In this document: in pieces, positions 1,117 to 9,912 of the stretch
How positions within the stretch are numbered: position 1 is the first letter of the stretch
Layout: every line of letters begins with the position of its first letter
NCBI GenBank assembly: GCA_016183125.1
Contig: JACPFG010000063.1
Location: 1 to 36,436 of the forward strand
Direction: 5' to 3'
Length of the DNA stretch: 36,436 nt
Source: Deltaproteobacteria bacterium
GTDB lineage: Bacteria; UBA10199; GCA-002796325; JACPFF01
Made by a program: the position numbers and the translations under genes
Notes under the pieces: model-generated
Databases searched by the model: none
Told to the model about the DNA's origin: nothing
The model's input: only the letters and a program-made list of their open reading frames with translations

Positions 1117-2897
1117 TCACGCCGGGACGTTTTCCACGGCGCGGATGATGGCGGCGTCCACGCCGTATTTCTCAAGGAAGGCGCGGCGTTCGGTTTTCAT
1201 CTTCGCAACCCAGCCACGATATTGCTCCGCGCGGCCATTGGCCTCGAAAAACCGGCGGGGCTCCAGGATCTCCGCCGGGACCTTGGCAAGCAGGGCCTTA
1301 TTTTCCGTGGCGTTCACGTCCACGATCTCGTAGCCGAAGTCCGGGTCCCGTTTCCAGACGACGCGCCCGCCGAGTTCGCGCGCCCGCCGAGCAGGGCCTC
1401 CAGCATGGCTGACGAGTGGGCGATCTTCACCTTCAGCGCCTTCCCAGCCTCCACATCCCGCTGATCGCCCGCGATATAACCGGTATTCATCAGCCACATC
1501 GTGCAGTGTTTCATCGTGGCGGCCAGTTCGTTAAACCGTTTGGCCTGTAAGGCATGGCTGCGTGGAAAGAAGGGCTGCGTAAACGGCGAGCGGGTTTTTC
1601 CACGTTCCTTCCCGGCCGCGCCCGTCTTCGATGTCTCGCCGAGCATGAAATAACCCGCCGCTTGGGCGGGGGAGGTGAACCGGACAATCCCCGGCGTTGC
1701 GGCCTCCGGTCCCTCATCGCGATTGAGCGTCCCCATCGAGCCGATCGGCGGCAACTCTCTCGTTAAGTCCGCGGCGTCACGAATGGCCGAGAGCGGAATG
1801 ATTGATCGCCCGTTCTGCGTCCATACGACAAAGTCCCAGCCATCCCTCGGCGTCCCGCCCGCATCCACGATCTCTTCGAGTCGGACTTTACCAGCGGCAT
1901 ACGCCTCGACGTTCTCCTTTGACGCGCCAGTCAGGCAGAGCGTTTCTTTCCATTTAGCGACCTCGGCCGGCGTGAGCGTCGTCTTGCCAAAGTCATACGT
2001 CCCGTCGGAATTCACGAAGACATTCTCCACCCACGCGCTCGGATGGATCGTCCCGTCGTAGATCACCGGCTCGGTCTGCTCTGTGAGGCCGAACGTCTTG
2101 GCAAAGCAGCCGTTCTCGGTGACGGAATACCGCCCGCCCGGCCAGAGCGTAATCATATCGTCCTGGACCGGATGAGTGAGTTCCCCTTGTTTGCTAAACG
2201 TCGTCGTCGTCTTTCCCGTCCCCGAAAGTCCCATGATCGCCATCGTCTCGCGCTTCGCGCTGATCTGGACTACCTTCGCGCCGGCATGGAGGACGAGGCC
2301 ATTGCGCTGATAGAGATAATCGCAGAGCATCCGCAGGACGCCTTTTTTACTCTCGCCAAAATAATCGGGACCGAGAATGTAGGTCGTCCAATTTTGGAGA
2401 TCGACGAGGATTGCCTGCCGCCCCGGCATCCCCTCGGCAGGGCAATCGGGTGTGAAAATAATCCGGAATGTCGGTGCAAACGGCTTGGCAAGCTGCTCTT
2501 TCGATTCGACCGCTGCGCGGGGAAAGCTCAAGACCTGCTGCATCCCGGCGATGTTCGCCCCCTCGCATGAATAGATCCACTCGACGCCGACCGCCTCCTT
2601 GCCAAGCCCGTAGTAGCCCTCTATGGCGACTGCCTCGCCCTGGGCCTCGAGGTATTTTTTCTGGATTGCGATCAACGCCGCCGCCTTGGCCGGGTCCATC
2701 ACCTTGCCGGAGTAGCTGCCGGCCTCGGATTCCGGGGCGAGGCAATAGGTGTACTGGGCCATCCGCGCCTTGTTCCGCGAGATCTTGTTGAGATTGCCAT
2801 ATTTCGTTTCCATCACCGCCGGCGTGTGTTTCAGCGCCAGCGCGCGGAGTTCCTTCTGCGAGGGGTTGCGAATCATTCGAAGGTTGGAGGTTTTCAT
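1117..2897 (-). pseudogene. pckA: Phosphoenolpyruvate carboxykinase (ATP), frameshifted near the 3' end
   Basis: YFGESKKG, LHAGAK, GLSGTGKTT, QDD and ENGCFAKT motifs; AAGGA RBS before ATG 2897; a 17-bp duplication-type insertion at 1362-1391 moves the C-terminal ~80 aa (VVWKRDPDFGYEI...) into another frame. Confidence 0.85.
1362..1391. repeat. 13-bp direct repeat CGCGCCCGCCGAG x2 separated by TTCG
   Basis: Copies at 1362-1374 and 1379-1391; removing 17 bp restores the pckA frame. Confidence 0.9.
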
Positions 2898-3000
2898 CGT
2901 AATTGTCCTTTCCACGGCGAGGAAATAGCATTCCAAACACCAGGCGCAATGATTAAAAAAATCTTGCGCGAAGCAGGTCCCTCGGCTACAGCACGCCCCA

Positions 3001-4206
3001 AGGGGACGGAAAGTCGGCATCGTTGGCGCGGCGATTACGCCGTGTAAGAGCCACTGGGTGGAGCGGACGTACTACGGCCTCTCCCAGATGGCCGTGCGCG
3101 ATTGCCTGCGCGATGCGGCGATAGGAATCAAGGACGTGGATGCCGTCGTCTACGGGATCTATAACGACATCTTCGAGATGGCCGCCATCCCGGAACACCC
3201 GCTCCAAGGGATCATCGGGATGACGAACAAGCCCGGCATTCGCGTCACAAACGGCGGCGCAACAGGTGCTTATGCCATGCACTGCGCGTATGCGTGGGTG
3301 GCGAGCGGCCTCTACGACACGGTGATGGTCTTGGGCGTCGAGCGGGCAACCGACTGCTTCGACTTCGAGTCGATGACCGAGACACCGGAAGTGATCAAGA
3401 CGATCGGTTGGTCGGGCGATACCTTCTTCGAGCGGGAGCTCGGCTGGACGGCGTCGGACAGCTATGCCGAGGTGGTCCTCGCCTACATGGACGATCATCC
3501 GGAGGATCTCAAACCCGAAATATCCGCCAAGATCAGCGAGATTCTCTGCCAACAGGCGAAGCACAATCCGTTCGCCCAGCGCCGCGACGAGGTGGTCACC
3601 GCCGAGATGGCGATGAACTCCCGGTACGTTGTCTATCCCTTTAAACTCCTCGAGATGTGCGTCTATTCGGAAGGTGCCGGGGCACTGATCTTTGCCTCGG
3701 AGGAGAAGGCCAAGGCCATTGCGCGGAACAACGGCAAGGCCCCCATCTGGATCGCGGGTGTGGGTGCCAGCAATGAGCATAGCGTCGCCGGGCCGGATTA
3801 CACGCGCCACAAGTATATGGGACGGATCTGGTCGGATCATATCGCGGCTGAGAAGGCCTACGCAATGGCCGGGATCACAAAGCCGGTGCAAGAGATCCAG
3901 GTCGTGGAGCTGCACGACGCGTTTATCAAGCAATTACAGATCACGATGGGGGAGATGGGATTCGTCCCGATCGGGCGGACCGATGCCCTCGTGGAAGAGG
4001 GGATCATGACGCCGGGCGGGAAGGTGCTCGTGAATCCATCGGGGGGACTCACGTTCGGCGGACATTTTGTTGGCGGGTCGAACATCTTTTCGACCTGGAG
4101 CGCGCGGCGCGAGATGCTCGAGCGTGGATTTGCGCGCGGGTTGATCCACGGGACCGGCTCAACGGTATCCCAGTACGGCGTGGTGTTTGTTTTGGAGCGG
4201 AGCTAA
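3001..4206 (+). CDS. Thiolase-family (SCP-x-like) protein; start codon anomalous
   Basis: Family-typical N-terminus RKVGIVGAAITP lies upstream of the called GTG 3058; AKHNPFAQ, ELHDAF and VNPSGGL..GGH motifs; codon 3001 is AGG where ATG is expected. Confidence 0.85.
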   Translation, partial: RGRKVGIVGAAITPCKSHWVERTYYGLSQMAVRDCLRDAAIGIKDVDAVVYGIYNDIFEMAAIPEHPLQGIIGMTNKPGIRVTNGGATGAYAMHCAYAWVASGLYDTVMVLGVERATDCFDFESMTETPEVIKTIGWSGDTFFERELGWTASDSYAEVVLAYMDDHPEDLKPEISAKISEILCQQAKHNPFAQRRDEVVTAEMAMNSRYVVYPFKLLEMCVYSEGAGALIFASEEKAKAIARNNGKAPIWIAGVGASNEHSVAGPDYTRHKYMGRIWSDHIAAEKAYAMAGITKPVQEIQVVELHDAFIKQLQITMGEMGFVPIGRTDALVEEGIMTPGGKVLVNPSGGLTFGGHFVGGSNIFSTWSARREMLERGFARGLIHGTGSTVSQYGVVFVLERS

Positions 4207-4208
4207 CT

Positions 4209-5207
4209 ATGGCAGGGGAGAAGGTTCAAAAAGTGATTCCGGAGCATATGATTCCGCCGGTGGCCTCGGAGATCGTCGAGCGGGGGGGCGAGCGCTACCT
4301 CCAATCGAACGAGGCGATGTTTACATTTTACAAGCGGACGAAGGGGGAGTTCTCGAAATATTTTCTGGGCCTGCGCGATGAGATGAAAATCTGGGGTGTG
4401 CGCTGCCCCAAATGCGGGATCGTCCGCGTCCCGCCGTTTCAGCTCATGTGCCCCGATTGCGACTTTTGCGACCTCAAATGGGTGGAGATGCCGCACACCG
4501 GCGTGATGAACTCCACGCCGCCGATCACGTATTTTGCCCACTCGCTCTTTCAGTCGTGGGTCCCGTTCGGGCGGGGTCGGGTCGTCCTGGAGGGCGCCGG
4601 CACCGCGCTCCCGGTACATGTCTTTACGACGAAGGGCGTGCTCACCCCGTTTATCTTCAAGAAAGGGACGCCGGTGAAGGTGGTGTTCCGCACCGAACGG
4701 TTCGGCAAACCGACCGACATTTTCGCCGTGCCGCTCGCCGAGTTGAGCGAGGCGCAAAAAAAGAAATCACCATTGATGGAAACCGACCTCGATTTTTCCG
4801 CTCCGGTCGAGCCGAAGGTTGGCGCGGCGACAGGAGCGGCAAAAGCGAGCTATGCAAAGGCGCTCGATCTGCTGAAGGAACTGGCGGTCGGCGTGACAAA
4901 GAGCCCCCGCGCGCAGCACAACCTCGCCGGTTGGACCCGCCGGATTGCCGTTCGGACAAGCAGCGGCGATTTCGGCCTTGTCATAGCCGAGGGCCGGCTG
5001 TCCGTAACGGATAAGACGCCGACCGGCACACCGGACCTCGTCATGGTCGCCGACGATCCGCAACTCTTCGTGGACTGGCTCACGTTCAAAGAGGCCCTCA
5101 CCAACGCCATCATCGCCGGCAAACTTTGGATCAGCCTGAACCGCGAATTCACCACCATCTTCAAACTCGACCGCCTCCCCCGCTCCGTCGCACGGGATCG
5201 GGGATAG
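4209..5207 (+). CDS. DUF35 (Zn-ribbon + OB-fold) protein fused to a C-terminal SCP2-like domain
   Basis: CPKC...PP...CPDC Zn-ribbon; C-terminal PDLVM....AII.GKL.I pattern; directly follows the thiolase, the usual DUF35 partner. Confidence 0.8.
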   Translation: MAGEKVQKVIPEHMIPPVASEIVERGGERYLQSNEAMFTFYKRTKGEFSKYFLGLRDEMKIWGVRCPKCGIVRVPPFQLMCPDCDFCDLKWVEMPHTGVMNSTPPITYFAHSLFQSWVPFGRGRVVLEGAGTALPVHVFTTKGVLTPFIFKKGTPVKVVFRTERFGKPTDIFAVPLAELSEAQKKKSPLMETDLDFSAPVEPKVGAATGAAKASYAKALDLLKELAVGVTKSPRAQHNLAGWTRRIAVRTSSGDFGLVIAEGRLSVTDKTPTGTPDLVMVADDPQLFVDWLTFKEALTNAIIAGKLWISLNREFTTIFKLDRLPRSVARDRG

Positions 5208-5266
5208 TGCCCGCTGTTTCTTTTCAGTTGTTTGCCAACGCTTTTCTATGGTAGAAAATACGCGGT

Positions 5267-5677
5267 ATGGTTGGTGGAGCGCTGAAAAAGGCGACACAGC
5301 AATGGATCCGTCATAGCGAAGCGGATTTCGGTACCGCACAGTTTTTATTGCGGGCACGGAAATATCTGTATGTCGGGTTCATGTGTCAGCAGGCCGTGGA
5401 AAAACTGCTGAAGGCGGTCATTTGTCAGGAAATGGACGTGACACCGCCGCGCACGCATAACCTGATTGCATTGGGCGATTTGATTGATGCGCGCATGAAC
5501 GACCACCAACGGGGCATCATGACGGCGTTAACCGAGTATTACCTGAATAATCGGTATCCGGAGGTGAAGGTCGCGCTTGCCAGACGATTGACGGGCCCGG
5601 TGGCGCGCCAGGTCCTGCAGGGCACGGAGGCAATCATCCAATGGCTGCGCGAGCAATACCGGATACCGAGCAGGTGA
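5267..5677 (+). CDS. HEPN-domain protein (HEPN/MNT TA pair)
   Basis: FMCQQAVEKLLKA, PPRTHNL and YLNNRYP motifs. Confidence 0.9.
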   Translation: MVGGALKKATQQWIRHSEADFGTAQFLLRARKYLYVGFMCQQAVEKLLKAVICQEMDVTPPRTHNLIALGDLIDARMNDHQRGIMTALTEYYLNNRYPEVKVALARRLTGPVARQVLQGTEAIIQWLREQYRIPSR

Positions 5678-6003
5678 TCCGCACATTTGTGCGGCGCCTC
5701 AATCGCGTCTTCCCACTGGAGGCGGTGTTCCTTTACGGGAGCCACGCGCGAGGGTGGCAGGATGCATGGAGCGACATCGACCTGGCGGTTGTGTCCAGGC
5801 GCTTTGACCGGGCTTCCCGTGCAACGTGGGAAGCGGTTCGTCGTATTGCTCACGCGATCTCGCCCATATTGGATGCCCGTCCCTTCGGTGCCCGGGAATT
5901 TGCGCGTTACGAGCGCGGCGATTTTGTCCACGAGATTCACCGGACCGGCAAACAGATCTACCGTAACGGTCGTTTTGCGGTCGCTGGGGCGCGCGGATAT
6001 TGA
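5641..6003 (+). CDS. Minimal nucleotidyltransferase (MNT) antitoxin
   Basis: LYGSHARG...SDIDLAVVS signature; overlaps the HEPN gene end. Confidence 0.9.
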   Translation: MAARAIPDTEQVIRTFVRRLNRVFPLEAVFLYGSHARGWQDAWSDIDLAVVSRRFDRASRATWEAVRRIAHAISPILDARPFGAREFARYERGDFVHEIHRTGKQIYRNGRFAVAGARGY

Positions 6004-6059
6004 CCACGATCTTCGTGCTCGACCGGCTGCCTCGTTCTGTTGCGCGTGATCGGAAGTAG
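6003..6059 (+). repeat. Diverged duplicate of the last 57 bp of the DUF35-SCP2 gene (5151-5207)
   Basis: TTIFVLDRLPRSVARDRK* versus TTIFKLDRLPRSVARDRG*; 42/57 nt and 16/18 aa identical. Confidence 0.95.
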
Positions 6060-6069
6060 GGGTAAACAT

Positions 6070-6864
6070 ATGCCAAAGGTTCAGACAACGACGGGGATCA
6101 ACATCTACTATGAGCAGGAGGGCGCGGGGAAGGACGTGATCTGCATTGCGGGCCTGTCGGCGGACCATACAACATGGTCTCCGGTCCTTCCCCAACTGGC
6201 CTCGTAGTGCCGCATGTTGATTTTTGATAACCGAGGCGTAGGCCAGACAGAGGCCCCTCCAACACCCAATACGATTCGGGTGATGGCCGATGACACCATC
6301 GCTCTTATGGATGCCTTGGACATTGAGCGGACCACTCTCGTAGGGCATTCAATGGGCGGAGCCATTGCGCTGCAGATGTCTCTGATTGCACCCGATCGGA
6401 TATCGCAAACGGTCATTTGCGCGTCCGCCGCCAGGCTACCGTATCCATCCGTCGCCGTCATAAAGGTTGCCGTAAAATATCGAGAGATGGACCTCGATCC
6501 AACACTCATTTTCGAGACGACCTTTCCGTGGATTTACGGCGAGGCATTTTTACGAGACGAAGCCAGGGTGAGAACTCAGATGGATCAATTACTACAAAAC
6601 CCATATCCACAGTCGCTCGACCATTTTCGCGGGCAAGTGGCTGCATGCGAGTCGTTCGATTTGGAGCGAGCGATCAGCGAAGTCAGAACGGATACGCTCG
6701 TGGTTGCAGGCAATGAAGATGTCCTTACGCCGCTTCGATGCTCGGAATATCTCCATCAGAACATTGCTGGTTCCCGGTTGGTCGTGATGAACAACTGCGG
6801 ACATATGATCCAACACGAACAGCCTTCAAAACTGGCCGAGACCATTCTCACCTTTCTCCACTAA
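6070..6864 (+). pseudogene. Alpha/beta hydrolase (PcaD/enol-lactonase-like fold) with an in-frame TAG
   Basis: ATG 6070 gives MPKVQTTTGINIYYEQEGAG...; TAG at 6205-6207; then DNRGVG, GHSMGG, GNEDVLTP and CGH motifs in the same frame. Confidence 0.85.
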
Positions 6865-6910
6865 AGAGGGGGGGGGGGGGCAGCTAAAACTTCTTGTGTT
6901 TACCATCATG

Positions 6911-6936
6911 AGTGCTGTATGCTGTAATACAGCACT
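6911..6936. promoter_or_regulatory. Perfect 10-bp inverted repeat, probable antitoxin operator
   Basis: AGTGCTGTAT-N6-ATACAGCACT just upstream of the GGAGGA RBS of the antitoxin gene. Confidence 0.6.
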
Positions 6937-6949
6937 ATGGAGGACGGAA

Positions 6950-7192
6950 ATGGCCCATCGCACCCAGTTGTATCTCGACGACAGCCAGTATCAATTCGTG
7001 AAGGACCTGGCGCGGGCGGAGCGGAAATCGATCGCCCAGCTCTTCCGCGAATGGATTGAAGAGCGCCGGCATTTGCGCGCACAAAAACGCTACGAGAAGG
7101 ACCCATTTTGGCAAATGCGCGGCATTGGAGCAAGCGGACGATCGGATATTGCCAAGCATTTTGACGATTACCTCTACGGGGACAAACGATAA
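6950..7192 (+). CDS. CopG/RHH-type antitoxin
   Basis: MAHRTQLYLDD...KSIAQLFRE...G...SG.SDIA..FDDYLYG, a pattern typical of antitoxins upstream of PIN genes; good RBS. Confidence 0.8.
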   Translation: MAHRTQLYLDDSQYQFVKDLARAERKSIAQLFREWIEERRHLRAQKRYEKDPFWQMRGIGASGRSDIAKHFDDYLYGDKR

Positions 7193-7538
7193 CCGTGCAG
7201 CAAGTTTTCCTCTTGAACGATATCTTCGAGCGGAACAACCGTTGCTGTTGACGACCCATCTCATCTTTGCCGAAGCGAATTCCCTGATTACAAAACGGTT
7301 GGGCAAATCCGTAGGGGAGCGCACGGGGGACCTGTTGCAGCGCAGCGATTTTGTGCAGTTGGTCTTTCTTGACGAGGTTGTCCATCGTGAGGCATGGAAT
7401 CTGTACAAAAAATATCGGGACAAAGACTTTGACTACATTGATGCCACGAGCTTCGTTTTTTGCAAACGCCGCGGGATCCGCGAGGTCCTCACCTTTGACC
7501 GCCACTTCGCCCAAATGGGTTTTCGGATCGTGCCCTAG
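7188..7538 (+). pseudogene. vapC: PIN-domain toxin missing its start codon and N-terminal ~25 aa
   Basis: TTHLIFAE, DYIDATSF and TFDRHFAQMGF present; no start and no first D-T-S strand. Confidence 0.8.
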
Positions 7539-7577
7539 CACCTGGTACCTGGCACCGAATGATAATGCGGTGTAATG

Positions 7578-8723
7578 TCATTCGTGGATGGCGAGCAGGG
7601 ACGGCAGGGTTTTGAGACATTCCTCGAAGGGGATCACCTGGATCCCTTCCATCTCCATCCGCCGGTCGCCGCCGTAGATGCAATAGGTTCGTGCCGAGGG
7701 ATAGTCAGCGCGAAAGGCTTTGAGACCGCGCAACGCATCTGAGCCGACGCGGGCAGTGCGCTTGACTTCGAAGGCGTGGATTCCTTTCGGGCCATAAGCG
7801 ACGAAGTCAACTTCCAGTCCGGTCGCGGTCCGCCAATAGAAGAGGTCATAATCCAGCCCCTCGTCTGCATTCACGGCCTTCAGTTCCTGATAGAGGAGCG
7901 TTTCATAGGCCGCGCCTTCTGCCTCTTCCGGCCGGTCGAGCGGGCCCATCGGGCGCAGCGTGCGATAGATCCCCACATCAAAAAAGTAAAACTTGGGATG
8001 GGCTGCCATCCGCCGCTTGGCGCGTTTGGTGAAGGCCGGAAGGCGCTCCGCCAGCAGCAGGTCCTCTAGAATAACGAAATATTGTTCGACGACTTTGCGC
8101 TCGACCGCACACTCCCTTGCCACTCCGGCAATACTCAGGATGGCCCCTTGGGAAAAACTCGCCGATTCTAAAAAGCGGGTAAAGGCCGCCAGATTTCTGG
8201 TCAGGCCCTCCTGCTGGACCTCCTCTTTCAGATACGTCTGGACATACGATTCGAGATATCGCTTCGGATCGGCCTCCGTGTAGGCGCACGGCAACTGGCC
8301 AAACCGGAGGGAATGTTCTAGTCGAAAATCGTTGCTCAACTCCCGGGCCGTCAAGGGATGCATCATCAACGTCAGGGCCCGCCCCGCCAGCAAGTTGACC
8401 CCCTTGCGCCGCAATTTTCGGGCGTTCGACCCCGTCAGAACAAATTTGTAGCGACGAGTTTCGATCAGCCGATGCACCTCGTTCAGGAGTTCCGGTACTT
8501 TTTGGACCTCATCGAGAATAATCCAGTCGCTAAACCCCTGCGGCACCAGCTGCTCCAATCGGCCGGGGTGAGCCAGCAAGTCATTAAATGTCTCCGCGGC
8601 GAGTAAGTCCACGTAGACGGCCCGAGGAAAGGCAGAGCGAACCCAGCTGGTCTTCCCAGTTCCTCTCGGCCCAAAGAGGAAAAAACTCTTATTTTGCGGG
8701 TAGTTAATAATTCTGGAATACAT
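7578..8723 (-). CDS. AAA+ ATPase (AAA_14 + DUF4143 type) with C-terminal PD-(D/E)XK-like domain
   Basis: GPRGTGKT, ILDEVQK, LTGS, PKFYFFDVG and EVDFV....AFEVK motifs. Confidence 0.9.
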   Translation of the reverse strand: MYSRIINYPQNKSFFLFGPRGTGKTSWVRSAFPRAVYVDLLAAETFNDLLAHPGRLEQLVPQGFSDWIILDEVQKVPELLNEVHRLIETRRYKFVLTGSNARKLRRKGVNLLAGRALTLMMHPLTARELSNDFRLEHSLRFGQLPCAYTEADPKRYLESYVQTYLKEEVQQEGLTRNLAAFTRFLESASFSQGAILSIAGVARECAVERKVVEQYFVILEDLLLAERLPAFTKRAKRRMAAHPKFYFFDVGIYRTLRPMGPLDRPEEAEGAAYETLLYQELKAVNADEGLDYDLFYWRTATGLEVDFVAYGPKGIHAFEVKRTARVGSDALRGLKAFRADYPSARTYCIYGGDRRMEMEGIQVIPFEECLKTLPSLLAIHE

Positions 8724-8757
8724 AACTCCATTTTACATAGTAATATGGAGTTATCAA
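8722..8757 (-). promoter_or_regulatory. Promoter of the AAA+ gene overlapped by a perfect 10-bp inverted repeat
   Basis: TTGATA-16-TAAAAT-6-ATG; ATAACTCCAT (8722-8731) and ATGGAGTTAT (8745-8754). Confidence 0.55.
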
Positions 8758-8823
8758 CTCCAAAATACATAACCATCCCAAACCGGTTGCAAAACGATGA
8801 GGCGTCGGTTAGGTTCCCCGGCC

Positions 8824-9912
8824 ATGGCGGGCGACAATAAAAACACACGGGTAGCGGTGGCGATGAGCGGGGGGGTGGATAGCTCGGTGGCTGCCGTCTT
8901 GCTCAAAGAGGCCGGCTACGACGTGATCGGGATCACGATGGCCCTCTGGAGTTGTCACAAGGGTGAGACCGCCAGGAAGAAGACATGTTGCTCGCTCACC
9001 GATGTCCAGGATGCCAGGGCGGTGTGCGAGCGGATCGGGATTCCGCATGTGGTGGCAGATTACCGTACGGAGTTTCGGGAGAAGGTGATCGATCATTTTG
9101 TGTCTGAGTATAAACAGGCTAGGACGCCGATCCCGTGTATCGGGTGCAACCAGTATTTTAAGTTCGAGCGTCTCTGGCAGACCGCACACGAGGAGTATGG
9201 CGCGGAGTTTATTGCCACTGGTCATTACGCGCGGATTGCGGATAATGGGAGCAGAAGCCTTCTTAAGGGAAGGGACACCCACAAAGACCAGTCCTATTTT
9301 TTATTCGTCATGACGCCGGAACAGTTGCGCCACAGCCTCTTTCCGGTCGGCGGGTTGACAAAAGCGGAGGTGCGGGAAATTGCTGCCCGGCACGGCTTGG
9401 CGACGGCCGAGAAAATAGAGAGCCAGGAGATCTGTTTTGTCCCGGATAACGATTACGCAGGATTTATCGAGGATTATTACCCGGAAGCGGTGGGGGCGCC
9501 CGGGGCGTTTGTCGATCAGGATGGGAGCGTTATCGGTCGTCACCGCGGTACGCACGCCTATACGATAGGCCAGCGCAGAGGATTAGGCGTGGCGGTGGGC
9601 GAGCGGCAGTATGTCACGGCCATCGATCCCGTGAACGGCCAGGTGAAGCTTGGGCGCGAGGAAGAGCTCTATCGCGCCGGGCTGACGGCAACTGGAATGA
9701 ACTGGATCGTCGATCTCCCTCGAGAATTTGCCGCGAACGCAAAAATCAGGTATAAGCACGTTCCGGCGCCGTGCCAGGTGCGTATCTTGGACGACGGGGC
9801 GACACTCGTGGACTTCACTGAGCCGCAGCGGGCGATCACGCCTGGCCAGGCGGTGGTCTTCTACGATGGAGACACGGTGCTTGGTGGTGGGTGGATTGAG
9901 CGGGCAGTGTAA
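8824..9912 (+). CDS. mnmA: tRNA 2-thiouridine(34) synthase
   Basis: AMSGGVDSS, TPIPCIGCN, ATGHY, KDQSYFL, ESQEICF, TIGQRRGL and ITPGQAVVFY motifs. Confidence 0.97.
   Translation: MAGDNKNTRVAVAMSGGVDSSVAAVLLKEAGYDVIGITMALWSCHKGETARKKTCCSLTDVQDARAVCERIGIPHVVADYRTEFREKVIDHFVSEYKQARTPIPCIGCNQYFKFERLWQTAHEEYGAEFIATGHYARIADNGSRSLLKGRDTHKDQSYFLFVMTPEQLRHSLFPVGGLTKAEVREIAARHGLATAEKIESQEICFVPDNDYAGFIEDYYPEAVGAPGAFVDQDGSVIGRHRGTHAYTIGQRRGLGVAVGERQYVTAIDPVNGQVKLGREEELYRAGLTATGMNWIVDLPREFAANAKIRYKHVPAPCQVRILDDGATLVDFTEPQRAITPGQAVVFYDGDTVLGGGWIERAV

Follow-up and report, generated by a model that had tools for sequence, protein, structure and literature searches.

Phage 21, like prophage e14, targets the icd gene of Escherichia coli, where icdC, a C-terminal pseudogene, is found. 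When an integrase acts at a tRNA gene, the part of the gene that begins at the anticodon loop and reaches its 3' end is duplicated, and CIME-type elements represent the tandem accretion of integrase-less remnants. Nobusato is said to have described, in 2000, an 'insertion with long target duplication' for complexes of restriction-modification (RM) genes. In a study of e14 at icd/icdC, excision of the prophage is reported to alter several synonymous sites (PMC13626634). Furuta, Abe and Kobayashi (2010; PMC2853133) describe RM gene complexes that were inserted with direct repeats longer than 30 bp and without mobility genes, and propose for them a virus-like cycle of insertion, amplification and release; the duplicated-tRNA signature of integration is described there as well. 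For toxin-antitoxin (TA) systems, Belot et al. (2026; PMC13617665) present TA 'islets' without mobile-element genes, whose spread is ascribed to homologous recombination at the core genes that flank them, and the entry of chromosomal TA pairs without visible mobile-element genes is held there to be still poorly characterised.

Here we report a TA-type cassette located between two diverged copies of the 3' end of a metabolic gene. The window, i.e. the whole stretch of DNA analysed, comprises 36,436 nucleotides of contig JACPFG010000063.1 from a metagenome-assembled genome (MAG) of a Deltaproteobacteria bacterium. The features of the locus are as follows.

3058..4206, + strand: thiolase-like gene (Pfam Thiolase_C_1, 1.7e-15; Thiolase_N, 2.9e-06)
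4209..5207, + strand: intact gene for a 332-aa fusion of DUF35 (zf-ChsH2) and SCP2, which hosts the insertion
5151..5207, + strand: copy A, the working last 18 codons and TAG of the DUF35/SCP2 gene, reading TTIFKLDRLPRSVARDRG and then stop
5208..5266, + strand: spacer of 59 nt before HEPN, with one sigma-70-like match at 5232-5259 (TTGCCA-16-GAAAAT)
5267..5677, + strand: HEPN-domain gene, 136 aa, putative toxin (PF05168, E 7.6e-21)
5641..6003, + strand: MNT (minimal nucleotidyltransferase) gene, 120 aa, putative antitoxin (Polbeta, PF18765, 1e-09; NTP_transf_2, PF01909, 1.4e-07)
5999..6003, + strand: right-hand junction, with the end of the insert and the MNT stop followed by the start of the orphan copy; the likeness to the region upstream of A starts here
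6003..6059, + strand: copy B, the orphan last 18 codons and TAG, reading TTIFVLDRLPRSVARDRK and then stop
6070..6864, + strand: alpha/beta-hydrolase gene (Abhydrolase_1, 3.3e-28 when read through with X)

Copies A and B are identical at 42 of 57 nucleotides and at 16 of 18 amino acids, and TAG terminates each of them. Recomputation reproduced these values from the first-pass annotation, as well as the nine synonymous third-position changes it had noticed. The 15 differing nucleotides are made up of nine single synonymous third-position changes, at codon 2 and at eight consecutive codons (R-L-P-R-S-V-A-R), and of two codons altered at all three positions (from A to B, AAA to GTG, hence K to V, and GGA to AAG, hence G to K). 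The two copies form the top direct-repeat family within positions 3000-8000 (5147-5201 versus 5999-6053, 76% over 55 nt). Their likeness may extend 4 nt further to the left (ATT), and on the right side it ends at the stop codon, which is expected if each copy carries the downstream DNA of its own lineage. Matching at 39 or more of 54 positions by chance has a probability of ~1e-12 per offset and ~9e-9 over 8000 offsets. When 15 random substitutions were placed in the 54 coding nucleotides, two or fewer amino acid changes were obtained in 0 of 200,000 trials starting from A and in 1 of 200,000 starting from B. Because random substitutions almost never leave so few amino acid changes, the substitution pattern upholds the proposal that A and B each evolved as coding sequence. 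Comparing both copies with orthologues, as had been recommended, showed that the C-terminal motif of the family, FKLDRLPRS, which is present in 75 of 75 homologue tails, is carried by both A and B, and that 'VARDR' is common to A and B and occurs in none of the 75 tails. Copy B has V at the position that is K in all 75 homologues, suggesting either that B is slightly decayed or that it never was a good allele. It sits in no long frame, the open frame there being 30 codons.

By Pfam, only HEPN and MNT are found between A and B (insert of 795 nt); the two frames overlap by 37 nt and have the domains of a HEPN-MNT pair. As first described, the final base of the MNT stop codon (TGA, 6001-6003) is at the same time the first base of copy B. 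MNT has 14 residues beyond alignment position 106, compared to 1-10 residues in 10 homologues, and its frame may run on to a stop created at the junction. The sigma-70-like match in the spacer serves as a lead only, promoter-like sites within 5000-7100 numbering 2 against 1.4 expected. Among the window genes from 1314 to 9912, no integrase or other site-specific recombinase was detected by Pfam. Regarding the neighbours, the thiolase-like gene is a conserved partner: it lies directly upstream of the DUF35/SCP2 gene here, and 20 of the 21 genome loci with a homologue have the same order, the remaining one being a 1.7-kb contig. The DUF35/SCP2 gene is single-copy in its own genome, and the Pfam matches of its protein fall below the curated cut-off (zf-ChsH2, 0.0012; SCP2, 0.0055). 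The hydrolase ATG is 10 nt past copy B, and the gene has an in-frame TAG at 6205-6207 (codon 46), which the contigs of X1-X4 (discussed below) confirm with 0 differences. As TAG closes both the DUF35/SCP2 gene and copy B, it is read as a stop here, and the hydrolase gene is probably a pseudogene.

The same arrangement recurs at 12 other genes. A whole-MAG scan revealed 13 genes, mostly housekeeping, at each of which an insert separates the working 3' end from an orphan one. Eight of the inserts are TA cassettes or a DUF4143 ATPase and five are hairpin repeats of 85-139 nt (contents: HEPN/MNT, HicA, MazF, PIN+MNT+HepT, DUF4258/DUF2283, an Xre-type gene, BrnT/CopG, DUF4143 ATPase and hairpin repeats); these inserts are selfish or accessory units. 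Over the loci, the repeats are 74-93% identical and a stop codon always marks their end. When the 13 loci are pooled (227 codons), the differing codons comprise 74 synonymous and 23 nonsynonymous ones, against a null expectation of 78.8 +/- 4.2 nonsynonymous, and none of 20,000 simulations gave a value as low as 23. A scan on nucleotides alone recovered 10 of the 13 loci, and a control scan of the DNA upstream of genes gave no case with the orphan-end signature. At C59, C17, C14 and the second tyrS orphan, identity is complete over the left 21-44 nt and the differences are confined to the part nearest the stop, as a crossover inside the repeat would leave them; at C27 the whole flanking repeat is identical (23/23). 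The spacing from orphan to next gene at the other loci is +7, +21, +31 or +37 nt, with a TAATG overlap at purC, where a 78-aa frame overlaps the stop of the orphan, and with convergent gene ends at +1 and +3. Serial insertion at a single site occurs in this genome at tyrS and tRNA-Gln, and the tyrS loci (+/-1.5 kb) of 29 relatives have 0 orphan ends. No integrase is present in any annotated insert, and only two PF00589 (Phage_integrase) genes, Xer-like recombinases on C71 and C9, were found in the 88%-complete genome, which also has three homologues of Y1 transposases.

A copy of the hairpin repeat is absent from the HEPN/MNT insert of the window. Besides lying between gene ends and their orphans, this repeat is also flanked by duplicated 3' parts of tRNAs, namely tRNA-Gln, three times, in its own genome (with identical flanking repeats, 19/19 and 29/29), and, in two Troglogloeales MAGs, tRNA-Met (50/50 nt) and tRNA-Gly (52/54 nt). 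A search of the surroundings of the hairpin repeats brought up no integrase. Rfam returned 0 matches in the window and in five hairpin-element loci, and 51 hairpin-motif loci of other genomes (376 kb) contained no clear protein-gene orphan. The flanking repeat at C134 was considered as a tRNA end and dropped, since ARAGORN shows no tRNA at the site.

Our preferred explanation, to which we assign a probability of about 0.68, is that an 852-bp block (5151-6002) was acquired, with A being foreign and joined into the resident gene, and B being the resident terminus pushed behind the cassette. The block would consist of the foreign last 18 codons, the spacer, HEPN and MNT, and would have been joined into the resident DUF35/SCP2 gene ~57 nt before its stop, such that the incoming terminus A completes the gene and the resident terminus B is displaced behind the cassette, still against the hydrolase gene. 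Such an outcome would follow from one reciprocal crossover in which a donor molecule having a homologous end beside the cassette recombined with the 3' end of the gene. Prophage e14 at icd/icdC shares this topology, as does the 'insertion with long target duplication' of RM genes. In the window pair, no identical stretch of A and B exceeds 8 nt, compared to 21-44 identical nt at the left edge at other loci. Identity over 8 nt is insufficient for ordinary RecA recombination, and because no longer run exists, a crossover within the A/B repeat would need another enzyme. One candidate would be a tyrosine integrase that was supplied in trans or has meanwhile disappeared; a small circle, or a one-sided homologous join combined with a microhomology join, would be recombinase-free alternatives. 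As a likely consequence, the hydrolase gene was uncoupled from the upstream gene and now has a nonsense codon. The substitution pattern, the C-terminal motif in both copies and the 12 further loci all side with the original suggestion that foreign DNA replaced the terminus, as opposed to decay of a local duplicate.

Searches for relatives yielded 79 homologous DUF35/SCP2 loci with 46-81% amino acid identity (21 in genome contigs at 57-76%, and 58 in metagenome contigs, the best at 81%), whereas 60 relatives searched with the DUF35/SCP2 protein gave only 12 weak DUF35-only matches at 29-33% identity. Genomes with DUF35 directly followed by the hydrolase, which the first-pass annotation had suggested looking for, did not turn up: no HEPN or hydrolase gene accompanies the DUF35/SCP2 homologues in the genome- or metagenome-contig loci, and one locus (L015) has one weak MNT-like match (33% identity), on the opposite strand and at a distance of 3.6 kb. 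MNT and hydrolase queries against genome contigs returned distant relatives only (best 40%, ~31-33% at full length), and a degenerate C-terminal pattern for LDRLPRSVARDR had 0 matches there. DUF35/SCP2, HEPN and MNT are singletons at 90% identity among ~15 billion proteins, a collection from which the thiolase sequence is absent. The recombination breakpoint anticipated within the DUF35/SCP2 gene did not appear either, as a sliding nearest-neighbour scan showed no switch (a scan of low power with the best homologue at 81%); L035 is the nearest or near-nearest homologue along the whole gene. A close relative with an empty or a donor arrangement was not found in any collection searched. Since donor-type and empty-site genomes are missing from these collections, we infer the foreignness of one terminus, the crossover topology and the direction, with A rather than B as the import, i.e. 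A as a surrogate terminus brought in with the insert and B as the displaced resident one. The position of B directly against the next gene favours B as the resident.

An unlikely alternative is the mirror image, in which A is resident with HEPN/MNT already behind it and the DNA from B rightwards was imported. The import would then comprise the orphan end, the hydrolase and perhaps VapBC and the ATPase, attached by an illegitimate join behind MNT, and its donor would be a lineage in which the DUF35/SCP2 gene is directly followed by the hydrolase. Codon usage appears to make A a slightly better fit to the genome, in that A uses the commoner codons of the genome at the nine synonymous positions (sum of ln ratios +3.59); over the 13 pooled loci there is no trend, with the A codon commoner at 34 positions and the B codon at 40. 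Composition also gives this alternative some support, GC3 being lower in B and in the right-hand genes (hydrolase 0.61, RHH 0.62, PIN 0.60) than in the DUF35/SCP2 gene (0.78) and in the long frames of the genome (~0.69). But the thiolase and DUF35/SCP2 genes have an unusually high GC3 themselves (0.80 and 0.78), so that composition singles out neither side. Synteny of the stretch left of mnmA, which is absent in all three relatives examined, is likewise in keeping with an import. Against it, the donor fragment would have to begin inside the last 57 nt of a homologue and its left join would lack any homology guide, and at other loci the orphan is often followed directly by a core gene in tight coupling (e.g., the TAATG frame at purC), which would then have to be foreign too. 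The T-ending codons of B had earlier been taken to hint at serial insertions linked to the hydrolase gene. T occurs at 6 of 18 third positions in B, compared to a share of 0.11 in the DUF35/SCP2 gene (P 0.010), 0.18 in the genome (P 0.089) and 0.20 in the hydrolase (P 0.13). This hint could not be sustained at this site, as the T-ending share of B, although unusual for the DUF35/SCP2 gene, is not so for the genome or the hydrolase, and the next 8 kb downstream contain no additional DUF35 end.

We consider it distinctly unlikely that a true long target-site duplication took place, with A and B initially equal and A later replaced by an allele of a diverged lineage through homologous recombination. 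RM complexes provide precedents, with repeats above 30 bp and without mobility genes (PMC2853133), and the repeats at C27 and tRNA-Gln are still identical in this genome. Such a history requires, however, two events per locus at a dozen loci, and it predicts an A that is diverged at the left and B-like at the right, whereas the opposite is seen at C59, C17, C14 and the second tyrS orphan. Moreover, a donor that replaces A up to the stop must match the DNA right of the stop as well, and so must carry the cassette, whereby this history collapses into the acquisition of a foreign block described above.

It is very improbable that, without any foreign DNA, a local tandem duplication produced the orphan, which then decayed neutrally. 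The two fully changed codons of B, one of them at the invariant K, do resemble decay, and a decayed orphan exists at the BrnT cassette. On the other hand, random placement of substitutions retained 16 of 18 residues at most once in 200,000 trials, the pooled simulations never came down to the 23 nonsynonymous codons observed, and the position of HEPN/MNT between the copies would be left unexplained. The orphan at the BrnT cassette, on the minus strand of C136, is visibly decayed, with one synonymous and six nonsynonymous codons and an internal stop.

The arrangement is not an assembly chimera, since contigs assembled independently from three other samples traverse the MNT-B junction without mismatch. 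The junction check covers the DUF35/SCP2 locus, and X2-X4 are samples other than the possible source of the MAG. Logan contigs cross the MNT-B junction with 0 differences in X1 (5953-6705), X2 (5194-6401) and X3 (5852-6233), the X2 contig (record 13) spanning from the tail of A through B, and the join between A and the cassette is reproduced with 0 differences by an X1 contig (3964-5975). Among the listed contigs, which drop rare variants, none joins ~5151 to 6003 as an empty site would, and no RNA data set is listed with the stretch of the window. It is scarcely credible that the MAG concatenates locus versions from two strains: although the MAG has 142 contigs and 2.45% contamination, no single listed contig holds the complete span of both copies, and the first 18 letters of X2 record 13 mismatch the window, A and B share no word above 8 nt, making a false join by a de Bruijn graph impossible, and the contigs of X1-X3 reproduce both the A-cassette and the cassette-B-hydrolase joins exactly.

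The working and orphan termini differ in the way that alleles of two species do, suggesting that the cassette arrived together with a piece of a core gene from another lineage. This provides a searchable signature, a stop-anchored orphan gene end with mostly synonymous differences, which could be used for detecting such events in any genome and for estimating their age, and it connects TA cassettes with a small hairpin element whose behaviour at tRNA genes is alike in several phyla. Annotators are thereby warned that a short orphan gene end following a TA pair is a scar rather than a gene; the gene next to such a scar, here the hydrolase, may also be severed from its operon. More tentatively, and with the odds against it, TA cassettes and cross-phylum hairpin elements of ~100 nt may move between diverged lineages without a recombinase of their own, with a 30-90-nt copy of a core gene's (or tRNA's) 3' end serving as a portable address. 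In a new host, recombination of the same gene with a small circle or an att-like donor would restore the gene through the imported terminus and orphan the resident one, and junctions too tight for other insertions would become accessible. If so, recoded orphan termini would be a general and datable footprint of 'islet' TA invasion of streamlined genomes.

We found no paper in open-access full texts on TA cassettes flanked by recoded core-gene 3' ends. As in integration at tRNA genes, the hairpin repeat here is also flanked by duplicated 3' parts of tRNAs; unlike tRNA-gene and CIME-type elements, the pieces are only ~85-140 nt long and no integrase was found nearby. The likeness to TA islets, as PMC13617665 describes them, lies in tiny islands, a TA pair alone beside core genes and behaviour as a selfish unit. 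The islet model there involves clean insertions, whereas the orphan core-gene terminus seen here is an extra mark that would be absent after a clean double crossover; in the main text of that paper, 'direct repeat' and 'scar' both have 0 occurrences. With the RM insertions our locus shares a small addiction-type unit without a mobility gene, and direct repeats that match the target; the insert is below 20 kb and its flanking direct repeats, at 57 nt, exceed 30 bp, as in long target duplication. Differences lie in the cargo, which is RM systems there (the word 'toxin' occurs 0 times in PMC2853133) versus TA pairs, an ATPase and hairpin repeats here, and in the repeats, which there are near-identical (44/46 and 47/47) and read as the recipient's own target duplicated (PMC2853133). 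In this genome they are 74-93% identical, with mostly synonymous differences, and always end at a stop codon, and the window pair, at 42/57 nt with coding-type divergence, is far from near-identical. Stop-anchored, mostly synonymous divergence of this kind implies that one copy was brought in. A further parallel is with prophage e14 at icd, where integration also occurs in the 3' end of a metabolic gene, a replacement terminus keeps the gene intact, and the original terminus lies orphaned on the element's far side, with mainly synonymous differences between the two (PMC13626634). Unlike e14, a prophage of 15 kb that has a site-specific recombination system of its own, the insert here is 795 bp with HEPN and MNT only, and no recombinase was detected among the window genes from 1314 to 9912; yet, as at icd, the 332-aa frame is kept intact through the surrogate terminus A, with the orphan B at the far end.

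Genes between PEPCK and mnmA were called from Pfam, and the hydrolase also from its translation.

1314-3020, minus strand: PEPCK gene (Pfam)
3058-4206, plus strand: thiolase-like gene (Pfam)
4209-5207, plus strand: zf-ChsH2/DUF35 and SCP2 fusion (Pfam, both matches below cut-off)
5267-5677, plus strand: HEPN gene (Pfam)
5641-6003, plus strand: MNT gene (Pfam)
6003-6059, plus strand: copy B, the orphan gene end (comparison of copies A and B)
6070-6864, plus strand: alpha/beta hydrolase (Pfam and translation), beginning 10 nt behind copy B; codon 46 (6205-6207) is an in-frame TAG
6896-7192, plus strand: RHH gene, VapB-like (Pfam; longest frame)
7188-7538, plus strand: PIN gene, VapC-like (Pfam, applied to the longer frame 7056-7538)
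7578-8723, minus strand: AAA_14/DUF4143 ATPase (Pfam)
8797-9912, plus strand: mnmA (Pfam)

Synteny to the right of mnmA is kept in all three relatives examined, and to its left in none. Copy A (5151-5207), which reads TTIFKLDRLPRSVARDRG and a stop codon, closes the 332-aa DUF35/SCP2 gene, whereas copy B (6003-6059), TTIFVLDRLPRSVARDRK and a stop codon, lies inside an open frame of just 30 codons, and its first nucleotide is the last base of the TGA closing the MNT frame. The two agree at 42/57 nt and 16/18 residues; of the differing codons, nine carry one synonymous change at the third position, eight of these nine standing in a row, and two are altered at all three bases. The copies, their likeness and the start of B are as the first-pass annotation had described them. 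The pair is the top-ranked direct repeat within 3000-8000, with likeness reaching 4 nt further left and ending on the right at the stop codon, and the chance of so good a match is about 9e-9 across 8 kb. When 15 substitutions were placed at random positions in simulation, 16 or more of the 18 residues were kept in at most 1 of 200,000 trials.

The arrangement was found in four sequencing runs of one groundwater study, X1 being possibly the source sample and X2-X4 different samples, and the contigs built independently from them match the stretch with 0 differences. One X1 contig (3964-5975) takes in A, HEPN and the greater part of MNT, and another (5953-6705) the MNT end, B and the hydrolase; an X2 contig (5194-6401), whose first 18 letters mismatch the window, leads from the tail of A across B, an X3 contig (5852-6233) covers the MNT-B-hydrolase join, and X4 gave pieces across A and across B. 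None of the listed contigs of the four runs spans A and B in full. The longest word common to A and B is 8 nt, so that a false join of the two by a graph assembler is impossible. Further right, one X1 contig over 7213-10000 has 136 extra left-hand letters unlike the window and an X3 alignment splits at the same point, which suggests a population variant or a join within the RHH/PIN pair at 7212/7213.

The thiolase and DUF35/SCP2 pair was found at 79 loci in very diverse MAGs, with 46-81% amino acid identity. FKLDRLPRS is present in 75 of 75 complete homologue C-termini, and thus A and B are both genuine ends of this family, as the suggested comparison with orthologues bears out, although B has V for the otherwise invariant K. 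'VARDR' is exclusive to A and B among the compared C-termini, and a degenerate pattern of their common C-terminus had no match in the genome contigs. Two other proposed checks came back empty: no homologous locus has the DUF35 gene directly before the hydrolase, and a sliding nearest-neighbour scan, a weak test with the closest homologue at 81%, revealed no breakpoint in the DUF35/SCP2 gene. Neither HEPN nor hydrolase lies beside any homologue in these loci (L015 has a weak MNT-like match of 33% identity, 3.6 kb off and on the opposite strand), and no donor or empty-site arrangement was found among them or in the collections searched. The cassette and the hydrolase have distant relatives only in a search with one genome per species, and in a collection of about 15 billion proteins, clustered at 90% identity, the DUF35/SCP2, HEPN and MNT proteins each form a cluster of their own. 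Compared with their counterparts in a MAG labelled Pseudomonadota, the window thiolase has 92% identity and the adjacent DUF35/SCP2 protein only 76% (window 3058-5207). GC3 is about 0.8 in these two genes vs about 0.69 for the genome, and the pair was not found in 60 relatives; it may itself have been acquired.

Across the MAG, 88% complete with 1.77 Mb in 142 contigs, we searched at most 8 kb downstream of each of 4364 open frames for a stop-anchored repeat of its last 18 codons. With one plain 83-nt tandem repeat and one tandem-paralogue pair set aside, 13 loci were left: the window and 12 others, read from the MAG assembly (contigs C59, C17, C28, C136, C91, C70, C12, C68, C16, C1, C22 and C14). 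The host genes are mostly housekeeping by Pfam.

Host genes and what lies between working end and orphan
DUF35/SCP2 (window): HEPN and MNT
H+-pyrophosphatase: HicA
ETF-QO: MazF
DeoC aldolase: PIN, MNT and HepT
119-aa gene without Pfam match: DUF4258 and DUF2283
tyrS: DUF2283
Ppx/GppA: Xre-type gene
Zn-peptidase: DUF4143 ATPase
rpoD, purC, AhpC peroxiredoxin, ferritin-like gene, dksA: GC-rich hairpin repeats of 85-139 nt, with 4-19 BLAST matches in the genome

Pooled over the 13 loci, 227 codons hold 119 nucleotide differences, the differing codons being 74 synonymous vs 23 nonsynonymous in a scan that selects on amino acid identity. A repeat scan on nucleotides alone (at least 36/54 nt) recovered 10 of the 13 orphans and added a decayed one with a BrnT/CopG cassette (1 synonymous vs 6 nonsynonymous codons); the same scan of DNA upstream of genes, as a control, gave no case with this signature. 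The cassettes are not mutual copies, paralogues being at most 44% identical. AAA_14/DUF4143 ATPase genes abound in this genome (window 7578-8723, C136:25581-26729, C132:6879-8246): tblastn with the window copy gave matches of 24-41% identity on 9 further contigs, and at least one lies between a gene end and its orphan, as the toxin-antitoxin cassettes do.

The likeness of each pair starts sharply 33-90 nt before the stop codon and in every case breaks off there; four pairs are identical over their left 21-44 nt, with differences confined to the part beside the stop. The orphan directly adjoins its neighbour: it ends 7-37 nt ahead of that gene's start, overlaps it (TAATG) or, where the neighbour is convergent, touches its end. 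This position points to the orphan as the putative resident terminus, kept in its native context, and retention of both the host gene and the neighbour's front signals suggests how such insertions survive in a dense genome.

Serial insertion does occur in this genome, at tyrS and tRNA-Gln. The tyrS array (C68:12976-17455, minus strand) consists of the working end, the DUF2283 cassette, orphan 1, a 1197-aa TPR gene, orphan 2, which is identical to the working end over 44 nt and then diverged, and a DUF4258 and MqsA-like pair. At the DUF35 site itself serial insertion, at which the T-ending codons of B had been taken to hint, is unsupported: no further copy of the DUF35 end lies within 8 kb downstream, and the T-ending codons (6 of 18), while unlike the usage of the DUF35 gene (P 0.010), are set apart neither from the genome (P 0.089) nor from the hydrolase (P 0.13). 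The hydrolase is probably a pseudogene, given its in-frame TAG, present in every covering contig of all four runs, and a neighbouring gene that uses TAG as its stop; the nonsense codon would fit a hydrolase severed from a former upstream partner. Just 3' of its stop lies a run of 13 G (6868-6880), whose length may be uncertain because the listed contigs break at about 6706-6868.

The right end of the hairpin element (…GCCCCTGTAATA) occurs 8 times, 4 of them with an orphan gene end 2-6 nt behind. At tRNA-Gln (C96:4235-4570; L198:736-1070), the tRNA 3' end stands three times in tandem with two hairpin elements between, the copies behind them being identical over 19 and 29 nt. The 24-nt end motif GGGGCGACGnnAGCCCCTGTAATA was found in 51 stretches (L200-L250) from MAGs labelled Nitrospirota, Deltaproteobacteria, Syntrophorhabdus, Troglogloeales and others; it is unusual for a small repeat to be common to several phyla. 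A duplicated tRNA 3' half flanks it in 2 of 48 evaluable occurrences, both in Troglogloeales MAGs (L243:5584-5739, tRNA-Met, 50/50 nt; L238:958-1185, tRNA-Gly, 52/54 nt), and 376 kb around the motif in other genomes held no clear protein-gene orphans. The tyrS loci of 29 relatives had no orphan ends, and 136 loci of other genomes (1.0 Mb) gave two look-alikes, L100 and L113, both from MNT-query loci; with so few, this genome is unusually rich in such scars. L100:3714-4372 (Pirellulales MAG) shows the same architecture in another phylum: the end of an 862-aa gene and its orphan (47/51 nt) enclose an MNT-containing cassette of about 600 nt.

Most likely, the cassette brought its own version of the gene terminus and displaced the resident one, an outcome that would equal a single crossover joining the 3' end of the gene to a donor with a homologous end next to cargo. 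Terminus replacement by foreign DNA, the main interpretation of the first-pass annotation, is supported by the A/B pattern and its recurrence. Either of two routes may have led to it: recombinase-free insertion, or an integrase that acted in trans or has long been lost. The tRNA 3'-end duplications favour the latter, a copy stretching from anticodon loop to 3' end being the classical mark of integrase-type integration, in the account of PMC2853133. No annotated insert encodes an integrase, and the genome has just two genes of the Phage_integrase family and three homologues of Y1 transposase, none of them near the inserts; such compact integrase-free inserts and the 8-nt maximum A/B identity sit uneasily with either route.

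Among known systems, e14 at icd/icdC, described in PMC13626634 with an integrase and synonymous differences, is alike in form, but the window insert is without any integrase. Restriction-modification gene complexes are also alike in form: they lack mobility genes, insert with a long duplication of the target, and in the proposal of Furuta et al. (PMC2853133) pass through an insert-amplify-release cycle. The window repeats differ from theirs in having diverged as alleles of two lineages would. For toxin-antitoxin islets, a recent study whose main text makes no mention of flanking repeats proposes that homologous recombination at the core genes on either side spreads them (PMC13617665). The window case is a new form of the known surrogate-terminus and long-duplication insertions; that it recurs within one genome, and is linked to a hairpin element found across phyla, adds to its interest.
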